Source of the DNA: an uncultured Actinomycetes bacterium | GTDB taxonomy: Bacteria > Actinomycetota > UBA4738 > HRBIN12 | Length of the DNA: 64,000 nt | Assembly (NCBI GenBank): GCA_963695975.1 | Contig: CAVOIB010000006.1 | Span: forward strand, 20,482 to 84,481 | Direction: 5' to 3' | In this document: one piece after another, positions 9,411 through 19,849 of the stretch | Layout of the letters: every line of letters begins with the position of its first letter | Numbering within the stretch: the first letter of the stretch is position 1 | Notes under the pieces: generated by a model | The model's input: only the letters and a program-made list of their open reading frames with translations | Database searches by the model: none | What the model was told of the DNA's origin: nothing | Translations under genes and position numbers: made by a program

Positions 9411-10586
9411 CTAGGCGCCGAGCGCCTTCCCAAGTTGCTCCAGGCTCTCCAGGTTGTGACCCGACAGGAACACGTCGACCGAGGGCATCGCGGCCGCCAT
9501 CCCCCGAGCCAGGGGCTCGTAGCGCGGCGACCCCTTCAGCGGGTTCACCCAGACCACCCGGTGGGCAAGACGGCGCAGTCTCGCCATCTGCGCCTTCAAC
9601 AGTTCCGGATCGCCGCGCTCAAGCCCGTCGGAGCAGAGCACCACGACCGCGCCGCGGAGCGCAGCACGCTGGCTCCACCCATCGAGCAGCGTCTTCAGCG
9701 ACTCGCCGATCCTGGTGCCACCCTCCCAGTCGGCCACCTGCCGGCCTATCTCGTGGAGCGCTCGATCGGGGTCGCGTGCGCGGAGCGTGCGAGTGACGCG
9801 CGTCAAGCGCGTTCCGAACACGAACACCTCGACGCGACGGCCCGCCGCCATCGCCGCATAGGCGAACTGCATCAGCGCGCGCGCGTACGGCGCCATCGAC
9901 CCACTGATATCGAGGATCAAGACCAACGGGCGAGTGCGCGACTTCCGCTGCCGCCAAGCGCGCTCGAATGGCTCGCCCTGCGTGCGCAGCGACCGACGGA
10001 GCGTTCGCCGGATGTCGAACGCCGCCCCTTTGCTCGCCGCCCGCGTTCGTCGCGTTCGCTCGACAGGCACGACGACCGCCAGTCGGCGGATCATCGCGGC
10101 GACACGGGCACGTTCGTCGTCGCTCAGCTCCGGGAACGACTTCTCGCGCAAGACCTCCACACCGCTCGCCACGATCCGGATAGCGGTTTCGTCACCGGGT
10201 TCAGGCTCCTCGTCGCCCGCGTCGCGCCACATCGCTGCCGTCGAGCCCACCTGGATCTCGAGGTCCTCGGGTTGGTCGCCCCAGTCGGTCGGCGGCTCGT
10301 GATCGGTCCCCATCGGCAGGTTGAGCTCGATCCGGAGCGCGCCGGCACCGCTGAGCGCCCGGTACCACTCGTCGAACGCCTCGTCGTAGGCCTCGAAGTC
10401 CTCCTTGCGTCCGATCATCGCGGTCCGGCCGGCCCAGTAGAGCGAGTCACGATCGATGAGCCCGAGAGCGGCTACCGCTCGGCAGAAGGTCAAGATGCGC
10501 CCGGTCCCCACGGGGAGGCCGCGGGCACGCAGGTCGCGGCCGAAGGCGACGAGCGGCGCGATCGGTTCCGTGGTGGCTGCAGGCAT
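9411..10586 (-). CDS. coxE: CoxE-like VWA domain protein
   Basis: LILDISGSMAPY, FVFGTRLTRVT, WEGGTRIG, SDGLERGD, WVNPLK...YEPLARGM. Confidence 0.85.
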   Translation of the reverse strand: MPAATTEPIAPLVAFGRDLRARGLPVGTGRILTFCRAVAALGLIDRDSLYWAGRTAMIGRKEDFEAYDEAFDEWYRALSGAGALRIELNLPMGTDHEPPTDWGDQPEDLEIQVGSTAAMWRDAGDEEPEPGDETAIRIVASGVEVLREKSFPELSDDERARVAAMIRRLAVVVPVERTRRTRAASKGAAFDIRRTLRRSLRTQGEPFERAWRQRKSRTRPLVLILDISGSMAPYARALMQFAYAAMAAGRRVEVFVFGTRLTRVTRTLRARDPDRALHEIGRQVADWEGGTRIGESLKTLLDGWSQRAALRGAVVVLCSDGLERGDPELLKAQMARLRRLAHRVVWVNPLKGSPRYEPLARGMAAAMPSVDVFLSGHNLESLEQLGKALGA

Positions 10587-10832
10587 GACCCCATCCAACA
10601 GGTGCCGGATGAACGCCGTCAACGCTCGCGGGCGAACGGAGAAGGGAAGAGGGCCGGGACGGCCGCGCAACCGGCACCGATTCAGCGCCTCGCCAGGTTG
10701 CTCTATCGAGGCGGCCGAACGCAGCCAGCGTGCTCAGCGTGGATCTGCCCGGTACGCTCTCGTTCGGTGTGACATGCTCCGAGCAGACGGGTCCTTCCAC
10801 CGAGCCCGTACGTCCGGTTCAGGAGGCGTCCG

Positions 10833-11807
10833 ATGAAGGCGATCGTCCAGGACCGGTTCGGTCCGCCGGACGTCCTGCGGCTGGTGGATACCGACCCGCC
10901 CGAGGTCGGGGCCGACGACGTGCTGATCCGCGTGCTCGCAGCGGCGCTCAACCCGGCCGACTGGCACATCTTGCGCGGCGATCCGCTCGTCGCGCGGCTC
11001 ATGGGCATCGGCCTGACCAAACCGAAGACCCGCGTGGCCGGCACCGATGCCGCGGGCGTCGTGGAGGCGGTGGGCGCGAACGTACGTGATGTGCAGCCGG
11101 GCGAAGAGGTCCTCGGCTTCTTCCGGGGAGCGTTCGCCGAGTATGCGTGCGCGACCCCGAACATGGTGGTACCGAAGCCGGCGCGCCTCACGTTCGAGCA
11201 GGCGGCCGCGATCCCCATCGCGGCGACGACCGCCCTGCGCGGGATCCGCGACACGGGCGAGGTGAAGGCCGGTCAGCAGGTGCTCGTCAACGGGGCTGCT
11301 GGCGGGGTGGGCACCTTCGCGGTGCAGATCGCGGTCGCGATGGGGGCCGAGGTCACGGGGGTGTGCAGCACCCGCAACGTCGAGTTGGTTCGCTCGCTCG
11401 ACGCCGCGCACGTCATGGACTACACGACGGCAGACTTCACCGCCGGGCCGACGCGGTACGACGTGATCCTCGACAACGTGAGCAACCTGCCGCTCGCCCA
11501 ACTCCGCAGGGCGCTCACGCCGAAGGGGATCTTGGTGCTCAACGGGGGCGGTTCGCCAGGTCACGTGTTCGGACCGGTCGCCGGTCTCCTCAAGGCGGTC
11601 GTGGCCAACCTGTTCGTCTCGCAGCGGCTGCGCCCGCTCCCGTCGAAGCAGAAGCGGGAGGAGCTGCTCTCCATGAGCGAGCTCATCGAAGGTGAAAAGG
11701 TCACGCCGATCGTCGACCGGACCTATCCGCTTGCGGATACGGCCGAGGGCTTGCGCTATGTGGAGCAGGGGCACGCGCGTGGCAAAGTCGTTGTCACCAT
11801 GGCGTGA
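10833..11807 (+). CDS. NAD(P)-dependent MDR oxidoreductase (zinc-independent quinone oxidoreductase-like)
   Basis: LNPADWH, GTDAAGVV, VNGAAGGVGTFAVQIA, GHARGKVVV. Confidence 0.9.
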   Translation: MKAIVQDRFGPPDVLRLVDTDPPEVGADDVLIRVLAAALNPADWHILRGDPLVARLMGIGLTKPKTRVAGTDAAGVVEAVGANVRDVQPGEEVLGFFRGAFAEYACATPNMVVPKPARLTFEQAAAIPIAATTALRGIRDTGEVKAGQQVLVNGAAGGVGTFAVQIAVAMGAEVTGVCSTRNVELVRSLDAAHVMDYTTADFTAGPTRYDVILDNVSNLPLAQLRRALTPKGILVLNGGGSPGHVFGPVAGLLKAVVANLFVSQRLRPLPSKQKREELLSMSELIEGEKVTPIVDRTYPLADTAEGLRYVEQGHARGKVVVTMA

Positions 11808-11823
11808 GACGAGTACACGGCCT

Positions 11824-11943
11824 CTACCGGGCGGTGAACGGACGGGCATCTTCGGCGGCACGGGAGTCGACGATCTGTCCGTCCTCCAGAGGCTGCCGTA
11901 GTCCCTCGACGGCCTCGCGCCGGAACTCGGAGAACTCGTAGAG
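11824..11943 (-). pseudogene. Fragment of comM/YifB Mg-chelatase-like AAA ATPase
   Basis: Hand translation LYEFSEFRREAVEGLRQPLEDGQIVDSRAAEDARPFTAR* matches the YifB/ComM segment LDExxEFxRxxLExLRQPLEDG..V..SR....FPAR; no start codon, no upstream part. Confidence 0.75.
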
Positions 11944-11962
11944 TCAGTCGTTCGGGCCCTTC
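11934..11962. repeat. Direct repeat copy 1 (att-like)
   Basis: actcgtaGAGTCAGTCGTTCGGGccctt; 16 bp identical to 12480..12495 with similar flanks. Confidence 0.8.
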
Positions 11963-12014
11963 GGTATCTCATCCGGGCTCAGCCTCGCGCGTGGCTATCC
12001 ACCAGGTAGCGTCT

Positions 12015-12353
12015 CTACGCCATCACCCAGAACTTCTTGAAGCCGGGCCGCTCGCGCCAGGCACAGCGCACGCCCTTCCGGATCGACGCCATGTCCCCCG
12101 TTCGAAGTTCGAACGTCGGACCGTCCTCGATCTCGATTTCGACCGAGCCCTCCAGCACTAGGAAAGCCTCATCTTGGGGGAAGTCGAAGAACGCCGGTTG
12201 ACCAGGACCATCCGGTGCCCAGAACAGGCCCGCCTGCATCTTCTCGTCGTCTCGGAACACGTGCTGAACGATCCCACCTCCCACCTCCTCGTCCGGCTCG
12301 AACGCGTCGGTGTTGAGGTTTGAGCGGAAGACGCCATCAGCGATCTCGAACAA
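12015..12353 (-). CDS. Small cupin (EutQ/DUF861-like)
   Basis: DEAFLVLEGSVEIEIEDG..FELRTGDMASIRKG...W; GGAGG RBS then TTG at 12353. Confidence 0.8.
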   Translation of the reverse strand: MFEIADGVFRSNLNTDAFEPDEEVGGGIVQHVFRDDEKMQAGLFWAPDGPGQPAFFDFPQDEAFLVLEGSVEIEIEDGPTFELRTGDMASIRKGVRCAWRERPGFKKFWVMA

Positions 12354-12472
12354 AGGCCCTCCGATCCTGGAAACGGGCTGCGGGGAGCAAAGGCTAGCTC
12401 CGGACCACGACCCCCGTACAGCTTGCAGAGCACGTTGCGGATTGCTGGACATCTTTCGTAACGGCTTTCTCG

Positions 12473-12502
12473 ACTCATCGAGTCAGTCGTTCGGGGCCCT
12501 TT
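12473..12502. repeat. Direct repeat copy 2 (att-like)
   Basis: actcatcGAGTCAGTCGTTCGGGgccctt, 539 bp from copy 1. Confidence 0.8.
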
Positions 12503-12529
12503 CAATACCGCCGTCCGACTACTACATCT

Positions 12530-12751
12530 TCACGGCGCAAGTGTCGCGCCGGTCTTGGGTTCGAGGAGCGTGACGCCCTGAGCCTTCGCGGCCTTCAGGA
12601 TGGCGTCCACCAGGTCTTCCGGCCGGTTGAACATGATCGGCTCGTTGCCTATCGACCCGAGCGCATGTTCCGGGTTTGGGCGAAAGCTGACGTCGCCCTT
12701 GAACCAAGCGTGGCGGGGCTTCACGAAACTCGACTCGTCGGGGAACAGCAT
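12530..12751 (-). CDS. Small hypothetical protein or gene remnant
   Basis: MLFPDESSFVKPRHAWFKGD...LVDAILKAAKAQG has protein-like composition; 5' part unclear. Confidence 0.35.
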   Translation of the reverse strand: MLFPDESSFVKPRHAWFKGDVSFRPNPEHALGSIGNEPIMFNRPEDLVDAILKAAKAQGVTLLEPKTGATLAP

Positions 12752-13075
12752 GCCTCGCAGGGCGTGCTCCGATGACGCCAAACGCTGGAGTGTTTGCGTT
12801 CCTCTACAGCCCATCTGAGGTAGTCGGATTGACCAGGTTCGTCGTCGACACCAGCGCCACCCTCCACCTCGCGAGCGCTGGGATCGAGTCGCAGGCGCGC
12901 ACAAGCTCCTCGGACCGACGCTCCCACGCTCCCGAACGCTGTCGGCCCTGCACGCGGCCGTCCAGCGGGGCGGGATCCCGGTCGACGTCGCGCACGACCG
13001 GCTCGCTCTCAATCGGGAGGATGCCGATCAGGCTCCTCGGCGACCGCGACGATCGACGCGCTGCTAGGTCACGGC

Positions 13076-13519
13076 TCAGGCATGGATCGCGTCGAGGGTG
13101 ACACGGCGTGGATGGATCCGGCAGATGACCCGCGTCTCGCGCGAACGCTGGGCGACCGGGTAGATCCAGCCGTAGTAGGCGGGGTGGTTGGTGTACTTGC
13201 GGGTCAGCGCGTCGAGGTGGTCGAGCGCGCCGTCGGTGACGAGCTCCGCGTCGCCGCGGATCTGTATGAACCGAGCGGTGTTGTCGGGGTCGACGACGAG
13301 CAGGCTGAGCTTCGGGTTGGCGAGCAGGTTGCGACCCTTCCGCCGCTCGAGCGTCGTGTTGACCCGGGCGCACCAGCCATCCCAGTCGACCCACACCACG
13401 CTCGATTGAGGGTGGCCGTCGCCGCCCATCGTCGTGAGCACCCCGCAGATCGGTCTCGTCAGGAGGTCGAGGTGCGAGGCTGGGATCGGAGCCGTCCCGG
13501 ATCCGAAGAGCGTATTCAT
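13076..13519 (-). CDS. PPOX-class putative F420-dependent oxidoreductase
   Basis: IPASHLDLL, LTTMGGDGHPQSSVVW, RRKGRNLLANPKLSLLVVDP. Confidence 0.85.
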   Translation of the reverse strand: MNTLFGSGTAPIPASHLDLLTRPICGVLTTMGGDGHPQSSVVWVDWDGWCARVNTTLERRKGRNLLANPKLSLLVVDPDNTARFIQIRGDAELVTDGALDHLDALTRKYTNHPAYYGWIYPVAQRSRETRVICRIHPRRVTLDAIHA

Positions 13520-13998
13520 ACCGTTCCCTCCGTCCCTGTCGCGTCGAGCGCGATGACGTGGGTCGGCTTGATCCGACAAAGGACCGGGATCTCGGTCTTT
13601 GCGAAGCGTGCGGGGATGGCATCGCCGAAGTAGCAGATCGACCGACCCGCGTACTTCGAGGCGAGGTTGTCCAGGTGCTCGGCCGCCCCCACCTCCGTCA
13701 TCTCAACGATGGTGCCCCGGACCTCGAGGTAGCGGAGAGGCAGGCGCGGGTCGTAGCAGAGGAGCGTGACCAGCGGATCGCGGCGCATGTTCCGCTCCTT
13801 GGCGAAGCCACGCATCGTGTTGACGCGGACGCAGTCGCCGTCGAAGTCGCACCACACGACCGAGGTCTGCGGATAGCCATCGGACATGACCGTGGTGAGG
13901 GCGGCGACCGGCGGGCACTCGACCAGATCAAGGTGTGACGCCGGGATCTCGTCCGACTCGTGATCGCTGAGCAGTCCGACGGTTCGCACCGGTCTCAC
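13516..13998 (-). CDS. PPOX-class putative F420-dependent oxidoreductase (tandem paralog)
   Basis: IPASHLDLV, LTTVMSDGYPQTSVVW, KERNMRRDPLVTLL. Confidence 0.85.
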   Translation of the reverse strand: MRPVRTVGLLSDHESDEIPASHLDLVECPPVAALTTVMSDGYPQTSVVWCDFDGDCVRVNTMRGFAKERNMRRDPLVTLLCYDPRLPLRYLEVRGTIVEMTEVGAAEHLDNLASKYAGRSICYFGDAIPARFAKTEIPVLCRIKPTHVIALDATGTEGTV

Positions 13999-15572
13999 CC
14001 CTCCGCCTCATCGTCGTTGCCAAGTCGGTGAATGACGATCGTCGCGGCGCCCACCCCGAGCGTGGCAAGACCGCCGGCCACCCACCTCCTCGGGCTCATC
14101 GAGGCCGGTAGCTTCTGTAGCGTCAGTGGCATCAGATCGAGGTGGAGTCGCGTCGTCGCCCCTCCGGGGTCTTGACTGAACACCACCCTTGCCAGGCCGG
14201 TCCCGAACTCCGAGAGGTCGGTCCGGAAGATGTGGGGATCAGTGTCGTCGTCGGGATATAGGGGAAAGCCTCTGTAGAGCGCGGGTATCGGGCTCAGGCT
14301 CCGCAGCATGAGTTGGCCACGCCGAACGAAGACCTCGGCTCCGGCGCCGATCATCAGCCGGGCACGTGCATCCGTGAGCCGAGCGGAGAGCTGGTACCAA
14401 CCGCAGATATCCCGCCACACCCCGGGGTTTTGAGGGACATCGTTGCGGATCACATCGTCATGCGCTCCGAGCAGTTCCGTGAGCAGCCCGGCGAGCTCAC
14501 CGGGCAACCACAACATCGCCCGCCTCGCCCCGTTGGTGAACGCCATCACCCCGACCCCGTCGTCGGGGGCCGCGAAGAACTGGGAGTTGAAGCCAGGAAG
14601 GATCCCCCCGTGCTCGACAGCGAGATGCCCGCCCAGGATGACCCGGGAGAACGCCAGCCCAACTCCCGGAACTCGGGGATCGGGCTGGTATTGCGGCTCG
14701 AACATGCTTGCAAGCGCCGCCGGCTCGAGCACCGAGCCGTGCTCGTTGGCGCCACCGCCGAGGAGAGCCGCGACGTAGCGAGCCATGTCCCTGGGAGTCG
14801 AGTAGATGGAGGAGGCTCCCGCGGTCACCCACTCGCGGTCGATCACGGCTCTGGCGCCATCGGACCGCAGCGTGTAGCCCGTCGCCAGGCGGGACTCGAC
14901 CCGCTTGGATCGGACGAGGTCGGTATCGGCCATACCGAGAGGCTCGAAGATGTGGTCGCGCAGGTAGCCATCCAACGGCTTTCTGCTCACGTCCTCCACG
15001 ATCTGGCCGAGGGTGGCGAACCCGTGGTCGCTGTAGATGAACCTGGTGCCCGGGTCGGCACCCAGACGGATACCGCCGCGGTAATACTCCGCAAGCGTCG
15101 GCAGCTGTCCGAGCTTGAAGCTCTCCCCGAAGTCCGGCCTGAACGCGTCGGAGGTGCGCAGCTCCTCTGGGACCCCGGCCGTGTGGGTCAGTAGATGTCG
15201 CACCGTCGCGGGCTGGAAGCTGGCCTTCGCCGGGATCAGCCGATAGGCGCGCAGATAGTCGTTGGCGGGGGCATCGAGGTCGAGCAACCCTTGCTCCACC
15301 AGCTGCATCACGGCGATCGCCGTGAACGTCTTCGTGATGGAGGCGATGCGGAAGACCGTATCTTCGGTTATGGGTTTGTTCGAAGCGATGTCCGCCACGC
15401 CGTGTCCGTGGAAGAACTTCAGGGATCCGTCACGCACCACGCCGACCGCCAGCCCGACGGCAGGCCAGCGGTTCAGGATCCCGTCGACCTTCACCCGCAG
15501 ATCGGCCTCAGCGATCTCGGGCGTAGCTTGTTCTTGCGTCTCGGTTCGCCGACGTCTGCTGGTCGCGACCAT
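13995..15572 (-). CDS. Serine hydrolase, beta-lactamase/PBP-like family, with C-terminal extension
   Basis: FRIASITK (SxxK), LLTHTAG, FIYSD, HGG. Confidence 0.88.
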   Translation of the reverse strand: MVATSRRRRTETQEQATPEIAEADLRVKVDGILNRWPAVGLAVGVVRDGSLKFFHGHGVADIASNKPITEDTVFRIASITKTFTAIAVMQLVEQGLLDLDAPANDYLRAYRLIPAKASFQPATVRHLLTHTAGVPEELRTSDAFRPDFGESFKLGQLPTLAEYYRGGIRLGADPGTRFIYSDHGFATLGQIVEDVSRKPLDGYLRDHIFEPLGMADTDLVRSKRVESRLATGYTLRSDGARAVIDREWVTAGASSIYSTPRDMARYVAALLGGGANEHGSVLEPAALASMFEPQYQPDPRVPGVGLAFSRVILGGHLAVEHGGILPGFNSQFFAAPDDGVGVMAFTNGARRAMLWLPGELAGLLTELLGAHDDVIRNDVPQNPGVWRDICGWYQLSARLTDARARLMIGAGAEVFVRRGQLMLRSLSPIPALYRGFPLYPDDDTDPHIFRTDLSEFGTGLARVVFSQDPGGATTRLHLDLMPLTLQKLPASMSPRRWVAGGLATLGVGAATIVIHRLGNDDEAEG

Positions 15573-15746
15573 GCCGGCCACCTCCCAGTTGACGTTGCTC
15601 TCTCGTTGACAGGAGTAACGGAGGCGATTGTCCCGACATCGACGGGGCGAGCGTCCCCTATCCAGCCTGGAGGCGATGCTCAACCGGAGGCCAGTGGTCA
15701 TGTCCATGAGCCGCTGACCGGCGAGGATCCCCTGATCACACGGGCG

Positions 15747-16121
15747 TCACGATCCCTGGGGCGGCTCCCACAGTTCGAACCGATTGCCTTCGGGATCGGT
15801 CGCCCAACCGAAGCGGCCGAACTCCGAATCCTCGGTGCGATCGTCCACCCAGGTCCCGGCGTCCCGCAGCTGTTCGAGCATCCGATCGAGGTTCTCCACC
15901 CGGTAGTTGATCATCGAGCGCGCTTCGGTTGGTCCGAAGTAGATGGTGTCGTCGGGGAAGGCGGACCATACCGTGGTGCCCGGTTCGTGCCACCGGAACA
16001 CGGCAACGGCGTCCTGATCCGGCTCCAGTCCGAATCCCAAGTGATCCCGGTACCAGGCGGCCAGCTTCGCCGCGTCCTTCGCCTTGAAGAAGACACCGCC
16101 GATCCCCGTGACACGCTCCAT
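15747..16121 (-). CDS. VOC/glyoxalase family protein
   Basis: MERVTGIGGVFFKAKD, MINYRVENLD, GRFGWATDPEGNRFELWEP. Confidence 0.9.
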   Translation of the reverse strand: MERVTGIGGVFFKAKDAAKLAAWYRDHLGFGLEPDQDAVAVFRWHEPGTTVWSAFPDDTIYFGPTEARSMINYRVENLDRMLEQLRDAGTWVDDRTEDSEFGRFGWATDPEGNRFELWEPPQGS

Positions 16122-16409
16122 GTCTCCCCAGCCTAGCCCGAGCCGCGGGGACTTCCGGGACCACCAGCGCGGAGAACGAGCCGGTCGGCTCCACCAGGCA
16201 TCCGAGGCACGCGAGGCGCAGGCCGATGGGCCCCTCCCCAGTGCCGCTGACGTTCGAGGACCTCGTGACTGAGACTTGTGAGCCCCTTCGCTGCAAGACG
16301 CCCACGAGATCTTCAACCTCCGACGAGGCAACCAGCCAAAGATCCCTGGGTGGAAGGCCGATGGTAGCTTTGGTCGAGTCGAACCAGCGAACGAAGAACG
16401 GCGATGGAC

Positions 16410-16718
16410 ATGGCGGGCGATCGCGAGCGCAAGGATGACGAGCGTCTCTTGGCGCGCGCAGAGGAGGCGTTGACCGAGATCAAAGTGTCGACGGGCCTGT
16501 CCGAGCCGCACGCCGCGGTCTTGGCCGCGCTTCGCATCCGCTTGAAAGGCGATGCGGGCAAGAGCCTCGATGCCCTCTTGGCCGCGGCCGAAGACCCCGA
16601 TGGCCCGAAGCTCGACGACGTGCTCGCGCGATCGCAGGACAAACCCGCTCCGTCGATCGACGATCTTCTGTCGAAGGCCGAGCAGCAGAAGCGCTCACTC
16701 GACGACCTCCTAGGTTAG
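16410..16718 (+). CDS. Hypothetical helical protein with repeated (S/K)(L/I)D(D/A)(L/V)L motifs
   Basis: Plausible ORF directly upstream of the cyclase gene; SLDALL, KLDDVL, SIDDLL, SLDDLL. Confidence 0.6.
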   Translation: MAGDRERKDDERLLARAEEALTEIKVSTGLSEPHAAVLAALRIRLKGDAGKSLDALLAAAEDPDGPKLDDVLARSQDKPAPSIDDLLSKAEQQKRSLDDLLG

Positions 16719-16731
16719 GAACGCAACAGCA

Positions 16732-18099
16732 GTGGACATCCCAGAGACGCGCTATGCGACGACGGCAGACGGCGTCCACGTCGCCTACCAGGCGCTCGGC
16801 GACGGCCCGGTCGACGTCCTGTTCGTGCTCGGATGGGTCACCCATATCGAGAAGATGTGGACCGAGCAGAGGTTCGCGCGGTTCTTCACGCGCCTCGCGT
16901 CGTTCGCCCGGGTGATGGTGTTCGACAAACGCGGCGTCGGGCTCTCCGATCGCGTGTCCGAGGACCGCCTCCCGTCGCTCGAGGTGCGGATGGACGACGC
17001 CCGTGCCGTGATGGACGCCGCCGACTCCGAGCGCGCAGTGGTGGTCGGGGTATCGGAGGGCGGCCCGATGGCGATGCTGTTCGCCGCGACGTACCCCGAG
17101 CGCACGATCGCACTGGTGGTGTTCGGCACCAGCGCGTGCTGGAACAACGCGCCCGACTACCCGTACAGCGTGCCGAACGAGGATGTCGACCCGGAGGTCG
17201 TGGCGTTCCGAGAACGACGGGAGCGATTGTGGGGCACCAAAGAGCTCGCCCGGGAGTTCCTCGCGGAGTCGTTCGCTCCGGACCTCGCCGACGACGAACC
17301 GACGCAGGCATGGCTCGCCGACTACATGCGGAACGCCGCAAGCCCAGGAGCCGTGAACGCCCTCTCAACCATGAATCGCGCGATCGACGTTCGATCGGCC
17401 CTCCCGGCCATCCATGTGCCCACCTTGGTCCTCGCCCGAGACGGCGACCTCGACTACGGCGTGGAGGAGACGAAATGGATCGCCGACCAGATCCGGGGCG
17501 CGCGCTTCGTCTCGTTCCCCGGGAACGAACACCTCTTCGTCATGGGCCCACAGGACGACCTGCTCGACGAGATCGAGCGCTTCGTGGCCGAGGTACACGG
17601 CGATGAGGCCGATCTGGACCGGATGCTCGCCACGGTGATGTTCACGGACATCGTTGGCTCGACGGAGAAGGCGGCGGAGCTCGGGGACAGGGGATGGCGG
17701 GACCTGGTGGAGCGTCACCACGGGGTGGTGCGGGCGATGCTCGGGCGCTTCCGAGGCAAGGAGGTCGACACTGCCGGTGATGGCTTCTTCGCCACCTTCG
17801 ACGGGCCGGCGCGGGGTGTGCGCTGCGCCGAAGCGATCACCGAGGCCGTGAACGATCTCGGGATCGAGGTCCGGGCGGGCGTGCACACGGGTGAGGTGGA
17901 GATGATCGCCGGGAAGGTCGGCGGGATCGCGGTGAACGTCGGCGCTCGGATCGCGTCGCTGGCGGCGCCCTCGGAGGTGCTCGTGTCCCACACCGTCCAG
18001 GGACTCGTTTCCGGGTCCGGCCTGACGTTCGCAGACGCGGGTGAGCACGAGTTGAAGGGCGTCCCCGGCAGCTGGCACCTGTACCGGTTGGCCGGGTAG
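16732..18099 (+). CDS. Alpha/beta hydrolase - class III nucleotide cyclase fusion (LipJ-like)
   Basis: FDKRGVGLSD, GVSEGG; ATVMFTDIVGST, GDGF, RAGVHTGE, AVNVGARI. Confidence 0.9.
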   Translation: MDIPETRYATTADGVHVAYQALGDGPVDVLFVLGWVTHIEKMWTEQRFARFFTRLASFARVMVFDKRGVGLSDRVSEDRLPSLEVRMDDARAVMDAADSERAVVVGVSEGGPMAMLFAATYPERTIALVVFGTSACWNNAPDYPYSVPNEDVDPEVVAFRERRERLWGTKELAREFLAESFAPDLADDEPTQAWLADYMRNAASPGAVNALSTMNRAIDVRSALPAIHVPTLVLARDGDLDYGVEETKWIADQIRGARFVSFPGNEHLFVMGPQDDLLDEIERFVAEVHGDEADLDRMLATVMFTDIVGSTEKAAELGDRGWRDLVERHHGVVRAMLGRFRGKEVDTAGDGFFATFDGPARGVRCAEAITEAVNDLGIEVRAGVHTGEVEMIAGKVGGIAVNVGARIASLAAPSEVLVSHTVQGLVSGSGLTFADAGEHELKGVPGSWHLYRLAG

Positions 18100-18120
18100 T
18101 CCGGGAGCCTCAGCCGGGGA

Positions 18121-18996
18121 TCAGCCGTCGCCCTCCGCCACCAGCTCGGCGAGCCGCGGGACCACCAGCTCCTGATCCTCGTGATCCTTCACGACGGTCC
18201 CTAGCGTGTCTGCCGCGAGCGATCCGTCCAACCGCTCGGCGCCGAGGAACGCGAGCGCGTTCGCCCAGTCGATCGTCTCGGCGACCCCGGGGAGTTTGGC
18301 CAGGTCCATCTCGCGCAGACGAAGGACGGCCACCGCCACGTCGCGCGCGAGTGCCTCGCTCACATGCGGCGCACGAACGCGCACGATCTGCACCTCGCGT
18401 TCCAGATCCGGGTGATCGATCCAGTGGTAGAGGCAGCGTCGCTTCAACGCGTCGTGCAACTCGCGGGTACGGTTCGACGTGACGACCACGGCGGGAGGTG
18501 TCTCGGCAGCCACCCGTCCGATCTCGGGGATCGTCACCGCGAACTCCGACAACACCTCCAACAGGAACGCCTCGAATTCGTCGTCGGCGCGATCCAGCTC
18601 GTCGACCAGCAGGACGGCGCCCGATCCGGCGCGGATCGCGGCCAAGAGCGGTCGCTCAACAAGGAACTCGGGTCCGAACAGGTCCTGCACGTGCGTCTCG
18701 GCCGAGACGGCGTCCATCGCGCGGACGGCGATCAGCTGGCGCGAGTAGTTCCACTCGTAGAGCGCCTGGGAGGCATCGATGCCCTCGTAGCACTGCAGCC
18801 GGATCAGGCGGCGGCCCAGGAGCGACGAAAGGACCTTCGCGACCTCCGTCTTGCCGACGCCGGCCTCGCCTTCTAGCAACAGCGGCTTGTTCAGAGAAAG
18901 CGCCAGGTAGATCGCGGTCGCCAGGCCACGATCGGCCAGGTAGTCCTGTGATGCGACCGCCTCCTGGAGCTCTTCGACCGACGTCAGCTCGAACAT
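18121..18996 (-). CDS. coxD: MoxR/CoxD family AAA+ ATPase
   Basis: LLLEGEAGVGKTE, LQCYEGID, YEWNYSRQL, LVDELDRADDEFEA, SNRTRELHDALKRRC. Confidence 0.88.
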   Translation of the reverse strand: MFELTSVEELQEAVASQDYLADRGLATAIYLALSLNKPLLLEGEAGVGKTEVAKVLSSLLGRRLIRLQCYEGIDASQALYEWNYSRQLIAVRAMDAVSAETHVQDLFGPEFLVERPLLAAIRAGSGAVLLVDELDRADDEFEAFLLEVLSEFAVTIPEIGRVAAETPPAVVVTSNRTRELHDALKRRCLYHWIDHPDLEREVQIVRVRAPHVSEALARDVAVAVLRLREMDLAKLPGVAETIDWANALAFLGAERLDGSLAADTLGTVVKDHEDQELVVPRLAELVAEGDG

Positions 18997-19024
18997 GGAG
19001 GAAGCGTACCCGAGGCGCTGGCGA

Positions 19025-19849
19025 TCACGCTTCGAACCCGGTCGGCGGTGAACCGCCCATCGCCTCCCGGAGCGGCCCGAGCGCCGCGTCGAGTGCGGCG
19101 AGCGCGCGGAGGAGCATCGTTTCGACGTCTGCCTCGCTCGCATGTGCCGCGCCTGCGGTCGCCTCCCGCAACGCCAGGCCTTCACGGGTCTCGCCGAGAG
19201 CTCGAATCGTTTGCTCAACCGCCACGCGGGTGGACTCGTCCGATGGGGACACTCCCACCGTGCGCAGCGCGCGGTCCGCCTCCTCCACGAGCGCCTCGAG
19301 CTCCCCGGGGACGGCCGACGGGGCCGACACCTCCCGCGCCAGTCGATCGCGAACTGCCGCGGTGGCCCTGTACGCCTGCTGGACCGTGGCCGATGGACGT
19401 CGGCGGCTCCGGAGTATGACGAGCGCCACGATCGCCGCAACAGCCAGGATCCCGAGCACCCACCAGACCGCGGACGTGCCGGTGGAGGCCTCGCCACTAG
19501 GTGCCGACGTCGGGCTAACTGCTTCACTCGGCGTTGGCTGCTCGGTGGGAACTGGGGTCGGCGAGGGTTCCGCCGTGGTCGGCTCCGCGGTCGTGGGTTC
19601 CGCGGTGGTGGGTTCCTCGGTGGGCTCAGCGGTGCGCGACGGCTGGATGCTCGGCCCCTCGATCGAAGGCGATGGGATCCCAGCGCTCGGCAGCGAGATC
19701 GAGGGGGTTCCCGTGATCGCCGGCCGGCTCGGCGGGGATCCCGACACCAGGCTCGAGAGCGCGTCCTGCGCCTGTCCGTTGCAGCTCGCCACGAACACGA
19801 GTGAGAGCAGGCAAGACCCGATCAGCACCTTAGTCCTCATCCGATTCAT
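19025..19849 (-). CDS. Putative lipoprotein with Pro/Ser/Thr-rich stalk, second TM helix and C-terminal helical domain
   Basis: Signal peptide ending LVFVASC; EPTTA repeats; TM AVWWVLGILAVAAIVALVIL then RSRRR. Confidence 0.65.
   Translation of the reverse strand: MNRMRTKVLIGSCLLSLVFVASCNGQAQDALSSLVSGSPPSRPAITGTPSISLPSAGIPSPSIEGPSIQPSRTAEPTEEPTTAEPTTAEPTTAEPSPTPVPTEQPTPSEAVSPTSAPSGEASTGTSAVWWVLGILAVAAIVALVILRSRRRPSATVQQAYRATAAVRDRLAREVSAPSAVPGELEALVEEADRALRTVGVSPSDESTRVAVEQTIRALGETREGLALREATAGAAHASEADVETMLLRALAALDAALGPLREAMGGSPPTGFEA
19565..19630 (-). repeat. Coding tandem repeat (15-bp unit, EPTTA x3 plus degenerate copies)
   Basis: TAEPTEEPTTAEPTTAEPTTAEPS. Confidence 0.7.

Follow-up and report, generated by a model that had tools for sequence, protein, structure and literature searches.

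Within a 64,000-nucleotide stretch of DNA from an uncultured Actinomycetes bacterium (contig C6:20482-84481 of genome G000, hereafter the window, in whose own numbering all unprefixed positions are given), an intact cupin gene lies between two direct copies of a short repeat, R, and one of these copies overlaps the start of a decayed fragment of the AAA+ gene comM, here called comM'. The first-pass annotation of this DNA had proposed that the two copies are hybrid attachment (att) sites left by repeated integration, and that the 539-bp unit could be a minimal gene cassette mobilized in trans. We find instead that the locus is probably an inert, one-off rearrangement scar of some kind, built from a stranded piece of a gene that does serve as an integration target elsewhere in the order. 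The locus was analyzed in a single assembly, that of the 2.84-Mb host genome (68% G+C, 14 contigs, 98% complete). The genes of the window are metabolic, and the related loci used for comparison likewise carry the title uncultured Actinomycetes.

The comM fragment and its boundaries

On the minus strand, the translation of 11943..11824 matches PF01078 (Mg_chelatase; curated cut-off 20.3 bits) at 26.3 bits (E 5.9e-6), its residues 2-33 aligning with profile positions 113-144 of 207, and in the genome-wide scan the fragment scored 22.8 bits. Tblastn with the resident ComM gives a match with 21 of 29 residues identical, which starts at L-D-E in the resident protein and at L-Y-E in the fragment; the D-E of the Walker B motif is therefore not intact. 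The minus-strand reading from 11943 begins LYEFSEFRREAVEGLRQPLEDGQIVDSRAAED. When 11808-12014 was compared by blastn with 294 genomes of the order (a tally that, like that of the PF01078 scan below, includes flagged genomes, G008 being flagged as unpublished; the key loci named here are unflagged), 132 genomes, G000 included, held a match. All comM matches begin at 11943-11928 (query 72-87) and none reaches the sequence 5' of it, and therefore the homology starts at the Walker B codons, as the first-pass annotation had it.

The other end of the fragment needs revision. Of the interval 11943..11824 that had been assigned to comM, positions 11850-11943 are comM, but 11824-11849 belong to the C-terminal remnant of a class III adenylate/guanylate cyclase gene that reads on the plus strand at 11819..11849 (31 nt, the last 10-11 codons, HGLYRAVNGRA, with the stop codon lost). 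Family-wide pattern searches, which covered 223 genomes (G000 and 222 others) and tolerated up to 3 mismatches, located the 26-mer 11824-11849 in G000, G003, G263, G288 (twice) and G023, with no control hits. At the four sites outside G000 and G003 it constitutes the last nine codons of a gene and is followed by TAG, and the gene that ends in this way in G023 is a PF00211 cyclase (43.5 bits). Given a cyclase tail on the opposite strand, comM' is limited to 11850-11943, a limit with which both the extent of the Pfam match (residues 2-33) and the ends of the blastn matches (11879-11853) are consistent. The F-T-A-R-stop at the end of the longer reading, considered as a counterpart of F-P-A-R in ComM, was rejected because its bases are those of the cyclase-gene tail.

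A comparison with G003 (75% complete, its contig ending 1.3 kb beyond the 11849/11850 junction) bears on the order of events at this end. The two genomes have in common the end of an alcohol dehydrogenase (ADH) gene, a spacer and the cyclase tail, 93% identical over 42 nt; G003 retains the TAG, and the stretch downstream of it resembles, by eye, that of a G288 cyclase gene. The two sequences diverge exactly at 11849/11850, with no conserved att site reused there. Relative to the state seen in G003, the window sequence from 11850 on is a later join, and the block that begins at 11850 is joined at the last codon of the cyclase-gene tail.

As delimited in this way, comM' is an internal piece of 94 nt (31 codons) on the minus strand with no start codon of its own and neither the N- nor the C-terminal domain, which is less than a complete gene; it is a pseudogene fragment of YifB/ComM. 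An intact resident comM lies on a different contig (C11:184816-186390, a 525-codon frame scoring 305.6 bits), so comM' is an extra piece and not the resident gene. Nor, by its divergence, is it a copy of that gene: its DNA is 72.9% identical to the resident comM over 85 nt as against 72-92% to the comM of other genomes in the blastn comparison, values that favor import over local duplication.

The direct repeat

The two copies of R, R1 at 11934..11961 and R2 at 12473..12501, have in common the exact 16-mer GAGTCAGTCGTTCGGG, at 11941 and 12480. In register they are 26 nt long, 88% identical and directly oriented at a spacing of 539 bp; with one 1-nt indel the match lengthens to about 28-29 nt (overall range 26-31 nt), and a weaker likeness extends about 17 nt further. 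Read on the minus strand, each copy terminates in a 10-mer that is one base off the comM consensus CTCGACGAGT, a difference that fits a shared 10-nt microhomology. In R1 this 10-mer reads CTCTACGAGT, overlaps the start of comM' and continues into it; in R2 it reads CTCGATGAGT and continues into unrelated sequence. That the second copy runs into ctc-gat-gag, as had been reported, is correct. The copies differ from each other at two of the three bases of the central codon and by the one indel.

R is a true duplication, beyond chance. The 40-mer at the first junction scores 22 against its own surroundings (±2 kb); random 40-mers of this genome average 13.2 (standard deviation 2.5); 44 of 6000 random 40-mers reach 22, and most of the 40 that were listed lie in long exact tandem-repeat stretches. 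When the comparison was made with 19,885 unrelated 3.9-kb segments, none reached 20, the maximum being 18. A direct repeat 539 bp apart that encloses a cupin gene is thus borne out by the 16-mer matches and the chance tests. Around comM' and R1 there are also a direct repeat of 12 nt (11774, 11986) and an inverted repeat of 30 nt (11754, 11982), both of which a rough estimate put down to chance.

The two copies are not equivalent in their setting. R2 is the right-hand half of a quasi-palindrome (12460-12491), and for this reason its region folds better as DNA than shuffled sequence (z -2.3; 4 of 200 shuffles as good), whereas the R1 region, with z values of +0.98 on one strand and +0.84 on the other, does not form the hairpin expected of an integron attC site. 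Because R2 is embedded in the quasi-palindrome and R1 is not, R2 looks like the original and R1 like the copy.

comM as an integration target in the order

The PF01078 family is present in 142 of the 151 genomes of the order that were scanned. In three of them comM is split at profile positions 102-109 by a contiguous insert, of 13.3 kb in G007 (locus L039, G007:C43:3500-19500), 10.4 kb in G139 (L040, G139:C17:108000-121500) and 4 kb in G013 (L041, G013:C19:111000-117800), and in G133 (L042 and L043) comM is split across contigs at the same profile positions. Breaks across contigs occur also in G064, whose comM parts cover profile positions 1-95 and 103-206, and in G083 (1-173 and 98-206), and the 5' part of comM has decayed in G160. 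All three contiguous inserts encode a protein of 466-469 residues within about 50 nt of a junction; those of G013 and G139 contain Resolvase, Recombinase and Zn_ribbon_recom domains, and that of G007 is a full-length tblastn homolog. The three large serine recombinases are 35-41% identical to one another. The junction falls at the codons S-L-A-H-H/G-V, 13-25 nt 5' of the start of comM'. In this order, comM is an integration target of large-serine-recombinase elements, as the first-pass annotation had stated of comM in general. PMC10083194 names homologs of the Mg-chelatase/ATP-dependent-protease kind as the commonest target, accounting for 12.4% of predicted site-specific large serine recombinases, and PMC4774983 describes mobile elements in comM of several species. 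Tn7-like AbaR islands are also reported from the comM of Acinetobacter.

The inserts differ in what they carry and in how they are arranged. That of G139 holds TerS and TerL (terminase) and HNH genes and, just inside its comM-3' end (L040:10110-11204), a DprA-family gene (DNA_processg_A, 196.7 bits), such that the element breaks one recombination-mediator gene and brings another; that of G007 holds a restriction-modification pair of the NgoMIV type and, in truncated form, a second recombinase. In G013 the recombinase gene adjoins the comM-3' junction and points away from comM; in G139 and G007 it adjoins the comM-5' junction and reads in the direction of comM. From this differing placement the elements seem to have inserted in both orientations at the same comM site.

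Pieces of comM are also found stranded, far from the gene itself. There are six such orphan pieces, in G043 (L046), G115 (L049), G287 (L050; two pieces, about 875 nt apart), G284 (L051) and G292 (L053), and they extend 20-240 nt into comM. All six, together with the junction in G160 (L044), begin at the recombinase junction, after an arm of the form ..GG.GACAT..CGAACAC... The window's comM' is of the same general kind, without the recombinase arm and without the first 4-8 codons. Considering that the comM of relatives is split just before Walker B, comM' is plausibly a by-product of a serine-recombinase event.

Searches for att sites, further copies and recombinases

If R were an att site in current or recent use, one would look for it beside other genes or other elements, and for an enzyme to act on it. 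The repeat at both ends of the unit is present (R, 26-31 nt); its recurrence is not seen. The host genome holds the two copies of R and otherwise only matches with 1-2 mismatches in unrelated places, with no second cassette or further R site in its 2.84 Mb at 98% completeness and no adjoining recombinase. With up to 3 mismatches allowed, R has no match in the remaining 222 genomes of the family, and it has none in genome_contigs, metagenome_contigs or viral_contigs, where an exact match to 19-26 specified bases was required. Blastn of the 753-nt unit against plasmids and phages gave no match. Neither a 5' part of comM nor a third R, as might mark the other end of an array, was found in the genome, and next to R2 there is neither a remnant of a recombinase gene nor a second piece of comM.

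R likewise shows no kinship with the sites used by the comM elements. A by-eye likeness (CGAAC..ACTG) suggested a decayed att arm of a comM recombinase, a candidate rejected by an nhmmer profile built from 11 such arms, which gave 37 weak matches in the window (E up to 1000) and none at R1 or R2. The start of comM' at its L-D-E position lies 13-25 nt 3' of the recombinase junction, and so not where an attR would begin. With R unique, unlike the known arms and offset from their junction, and with no serine recombinase in the genome, the proposal of hybrid att sites from repeated integration finds no support, and that of a trans-mobilized 539-bp cassette fares no better, R being found nowhere else and the relatives of the cupin gene occurring in other contexts without it.

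As for the enzyme, no recombinase or transposase family was recognized among the open reading frames of the window that were scanned (44 in one Pfam scan, others in further scans), in agreement with the first-pass annotation. In the host genome, PF00239 (serine recombinase) has no match, and tblastn with the three large serine recombinases of relatives finds none. PF00589 has three matches, all on other contigs, two of them full-length and one a partial integrase; the two full-length tyrosine recombinases we take to be Xer-type, and the match 1.6 kb from comM is presumably XerC by its gene order. As these three are the tyrosine recombinases of the host, any enzyme acting in trans would have to be among them. 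No tRNA that could serve as a target was found in the window or in 7 related loci.

The cupin gene

The gene enclosed by the repeats (12015..12353, minus strand) is intact and encodes 112 residues when read from the TTG at 12353, although the open frame extends to an ATG at 12452. It matches Cupin_3 (PF05899) at 41.4-42.1 bits, above the cut-off of 23.5 bits, and the TTG is preceded by GGAGGG. The description of a cupin gene between the repeats therefore stands, with the start being likely the TTG and not the ATG, since relatives start at V/M-F/Y-E-I-A-D-G; this start is found in three relatives behind GGAG-type sites, among them those with 84-88% identity in their best tblastn segments. Five related cupin loci are known from other metagenome-assembled genomes (MAGs), with 44-88% identity in the best tblastn segment; they share with the window only 12400-11997, their flanks differ and they have no R. 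A search of metagenome_contigs gave one partial, uninformative match. Two of the relatives, L027 and L029, are paralogs from one MAG (CAWFNS010000010.1 and CAWFNS010000008.1), each within about 0.6-1.2 kb of a contig end, a position that may be coincidence or a sign of repeated DNA.

A possible -10 box, TAGCCT at 12391..12396 on the minus strand, can be picked out by eye, GCTAGCCT-like in L027, L028 and the window, at the point where the homology of the cupin loci begins (limit 12400). A consensus scan returned no promoter (no sigma-70 site) and no terminator. The gene has a GC3 of 0.75, compared with 0.85-0.90 in neighboring genes. It is to be regarded as an ordinary accessory gene with its own predicted promoter and ribosome-binding site.

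The stretch between the cupin gene and R2 yielded two candidates that did not hold up. The 33 codons from the ATG at 12452 to the cupin start were considered as the stump of a serine recombinase, R-A-L-Q-A-V-R-G-S resembling R-A-V-G-Y-V-R-V-S, and rejected: Pfam gives no match even at an E limit of 10, and three recombinases used as tblastn queries against the region returned noise only (best E 0.066, elsewhere in the region). Positions 12470-12380 were considered as a second decayed comM piece, which would have made a tandem R-comM' duplication; against three comM sequences, 1317, 446 and 1477 of 2000 shuffles reach the observed score, and an alignment no better than shuffles led us to reject this as well.

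Surroundings of the locus

The locus belongs to a patchwork at 11808-13075 (1.2 kb, from the ADH gene to a PNPOx-family gene) that comprises the cyclase tail, the comM piece, the intact cupin gene, a gene of a rare family and a broken toxin-type gene. The rare gene, X (12530..12832, minus strand), encodes a small protein of no Pfam family and has its stop codon 25 nt before R2; its C-terminal 65 residues are conserved, with the core W-F-K-G-D-V-x-F-x-P-N..D-P-I-M-F-N-R-P-E-E-L, and its N-terminus is divergent or damaged. The family has 7 matches at E<=0.001 among 1.84 billion representatives, and no relative in 40 related genomes or in genome_contigs. Beyond it, in a six-frame reading, lies a frameshifted and 3'-truncated PIN-domain (VapC-like) pseudogene (12829..13044, plus strand), whose intact paralog at C2:867698-867936 matches it over 242 nt with 77% identity and has no obvious antitoxin gene upstream. 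The PNPOx-family gene (13076..13579, minus strand; PNPOx_N, 58 bits) is the first intact gene beyond the debris. A structured RNA or ribozyme was considered and rejected, since an Rfam scan of 11500-13300 gave a sub-threshold snoRNA as its sole match (19.3 vs 38 bits).

On the other side, the ADH gene (10833..11807, plus strand; zinc-type alcohol dehydrogenase/quinone oxidoreductase; ADH_zinc_N_2 82 bits, ADH_N 52.9 bits) is the sole part of the neighborhood conserved in relatives. It is 80-85% identical in G003, G012, G005, G010, G023, G008 and G001, with the homology stopping at 11807-11849, and in six relatives there is no synteny around it outside the gene itself. The cyclase tail, which G003 shares, sits 12 nt past the ADH stop codon; it seems that the body of a cyclase gene was replaced by the ADH gene, in a region that holds arrays of cyclase paralogs in relatives. 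G003 also has a small HTH_23 gene upstream of its ADH gene and, at its contig end (L025:8835-9350), an open frame that belongs to no Pfam family and whose C-terminus is helix-turn-helix-like; these may be mobile DNA.

All of this falls within a variable island of 7.5 kb (10650..18110), bounded on one side by a CoxE-type VWA gene (9411-10670) and on the other by an AAA_5 ATPase gene (18121-19527). The island is absent from G005, where the two genes are adjacent, about 570 nt apart, and G012 has about 15 kb of different DNA, rich in cyclase paralogs, between the same two genes. The gene pair split by the island is of the CoxE-VWA / AAA_5 (CoxD-like) kind.

Weighing the explanations

Taken as a whole, the locus is best explained, in a judgment that we hold with some reserve, as an inert scar and not a working device, and we lean toward the view that no part of it is mobile today. 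The surroundings favor an inert scar, consisting of debris in an island that G005 lacks and in whose place G012 has other DNA. The history could have begun with the splitting of comM by a large-serine-recombinase element, in a donor or an ancestor, whereby the 3' side of the gene was displaced as the later comM' and its recombinase-side att end was subsequently lost. DNA carrying gene X, R2 and the cupin gene is joined to comM' at the point of likeness between CTCGATGAGT, next to R2, and the Walker B codons, CTCGACGAGT; the present junction would have arisen from a single illegitimate event at this 10-nt microhomology. In the same event the breakpoint may have received a copy of about 30 nt from R2, 539 bp away, whether through a templated patch or through a tandem duplication followed by a microhomology deletion. 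The far end of comM' is joined to the last codon of the cyclase-gene tail. This microhomology or templated-copy route in particular is a tentative proposal that we hold at a little short of an even call.

Several observations weigh against the inert-scar explanation and should be kept in view. A direct repeat that brackets one promoter-plus-gene unit and abuts an integration-target gene also has the look of an att duplication, and an exact R core (16+5 nt) between less exact flanks is as compatible with a conserved site as with a young copy. The dyad of R2, with imperfect arms of 12-14 nt and a center of 4-8 nt, resembles a recombinase core site. The 13-25-nt offset makes the link between comM' and the recombinase elements an indirect one, and the six orphan pieces of the order (6/6), like the G160 junction, keep the recombinase arm that comM' does not. 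Templated patches in bacteria are brought in here from general background literature. Finally, the exact-pattern scans of the public collections would pass over diverged relatives of R, and the family-wide scan admitted 3 mismatches only.

It is also conceivable, if rather unlikely, that the locus is a fossil att duplication, in which a small circle bearing the cupin gene and R integrated into a pre-existing R-comM' junction, either through a site-specific recombinase acting in trans or through a RecA-dependent Campbell insertion via about 30-48 nt of identity. The outcome, R on both sides, would resemble a cis-mobilizable remnant or an accretion array whose recombinase was lost or never resident. 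Such an origin would account for a non-chance direct repeat around one gene with a promoter, and for the presence in both copies of the same non-comM arm and a 10-nt comM-like core, as in a P-O-P' site beside a P-O-B' site; the dyad symmetry of R2, the proven role of comM as a target in the order, and the lower GC3 and patchy distribution of the cupin gene point the same way. It predicts, however, that R should recur, and R turned up nowhere else in the genomes and collections searched; the cupin relatives are without it, there is no serine recombinase and no spare integrase near the locus, R is unrelated to the att arms of the comM elements and its junction lies 13-25 nt off theirs, neither a comM 5' part nor a third R marks the array end, and no recombinase remnant lies upstream of the cupin gene. 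That the 539-bp R-cupin unit is still an active non-autonomous cassette, moved by an enzyme encoded elsewhere (a host Xer protein, as for the dif modules of plasmids, or that of a co-resident element), is scarcely credible: its anatomy alone, two near-identical direct copies of R and the dyad of R2, speaks for it, and it faces the same negative searches, the lack of a dyad in R1, the divergence of R1 from R2 at two of the three central-codon bases and by an indel, and the absence of a second cassette or site in the genome.

At the other extreme, the likeness of the two copies could be fortuitous, or the assembly could be a chimera joined at a short shared word in a MAG. The exact core is just 16 nt, a count by eye outside repeat-protein genes puts at about 15-20 the isolated exact 16-18-mers of this genome that recur within 1 kb, the case was picked after the fact from many windows, and the assembly is in 14 contigs. 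We nonetheless deem chance or chimera very improbable, for the extended match scores 22 and none of the 19,885 unrelated segments reaches 20, one copy of R ends exactly at the boundary of a pseudogene, and a repeat of 16-21 nt is below the word sizes at which assemblers usually mis-join. A last and equally far-fetched idea is that R is the att site of unseen, enzyme-less minicassettes, each a promoter plus a gene, which insert beside decayed comM scars, reuse the Walker B codons as a core, build arrays of the form X-R-cupin-R-comM' and are moved by an Xer-type or visiting recombinase. If it were true, this would be integron-like gene capture in Actinomycetota built on comM debris, a new mode of capture.

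Relation to known systems and significance

The inert scar that we prefer has partial likenesses to several known systems. With the large-serine-recombinase prophages and islands in comM (PMC10083194; mobile elements in comM in general, PMC4774983) it has in common a 3'-side piece of comM beside foreign-looking DNA, and elements with such recombinases in relatives split comM within 13-25 nt of the point where comM' starts. Unlike them, the locus has no recombinase (genome-wide) and no recombinase-side att arm, comM' starts deeper in the gene and is 94 nt only, and the resident comM is intact elsewhere. The orphan attR-like scars of the order are alike in being short pieces of the same part of comM, stranded and with arbitrary ends, but they keep the recombinase arm (6/6) and start at the recombinase junction; in the window R stands in place of the arm, and the comM sequence begins 4-8 codons further into the gene.

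Cis-mobilizable elements and accretion arrays are familiar from the ICESt elements of Streptococcus thermophilus. The window resembles such arrays in having att-like direct repeats around recombinase-less DNA and a two-arm internal site beside a hybrid site, and differs from them in that the searches made revealed neither a cognate element nor a left end of the array, and the site was not seen to recur. Integron attC cassettes and the Xer-dependent dif modules of Acinetobacter plasmids are, like the unit as proposed, single-gene units with short sites whose enzyme is encoded elsewhere; compared with these, R measures about 30 nt, shows a hairpin or dyad in one copy only and is repeated directly rather than inverted, there is no integron integrase nearby, the cupin gene has its own predicted promoter, and there is no other cassette. 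Short-patch double illegitimate recombination and quasi-palindrome template switching produce microhomology joins with templated patches. With these the locus shares a 9/10-nt microhomology junction, tens of nucleotides apparently copied from a few hundred base pairs away, a source copy within a quasi-palindrome and a unique event; R is longer than most such patches, and a reading of this kind is unprovable from one sequence.

The locus itself is of little weight. It may serve as a worked example of the way in which short gene remnants (here from a cyclase gene, comM and a PIN gene) accumulate where a small actinobacterial genome is plastic, and of the resemblance to att sites that a repeat can acquire by lying at the edge of a pseudogene. 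The by-product of the analysis, the splitting of comM by mobile elements, is the more useful result: comM genes split before Walker B, together with scattered attR-like scraps, extend the known target preference of these elements to a poorly studied order of Actinomycetota.

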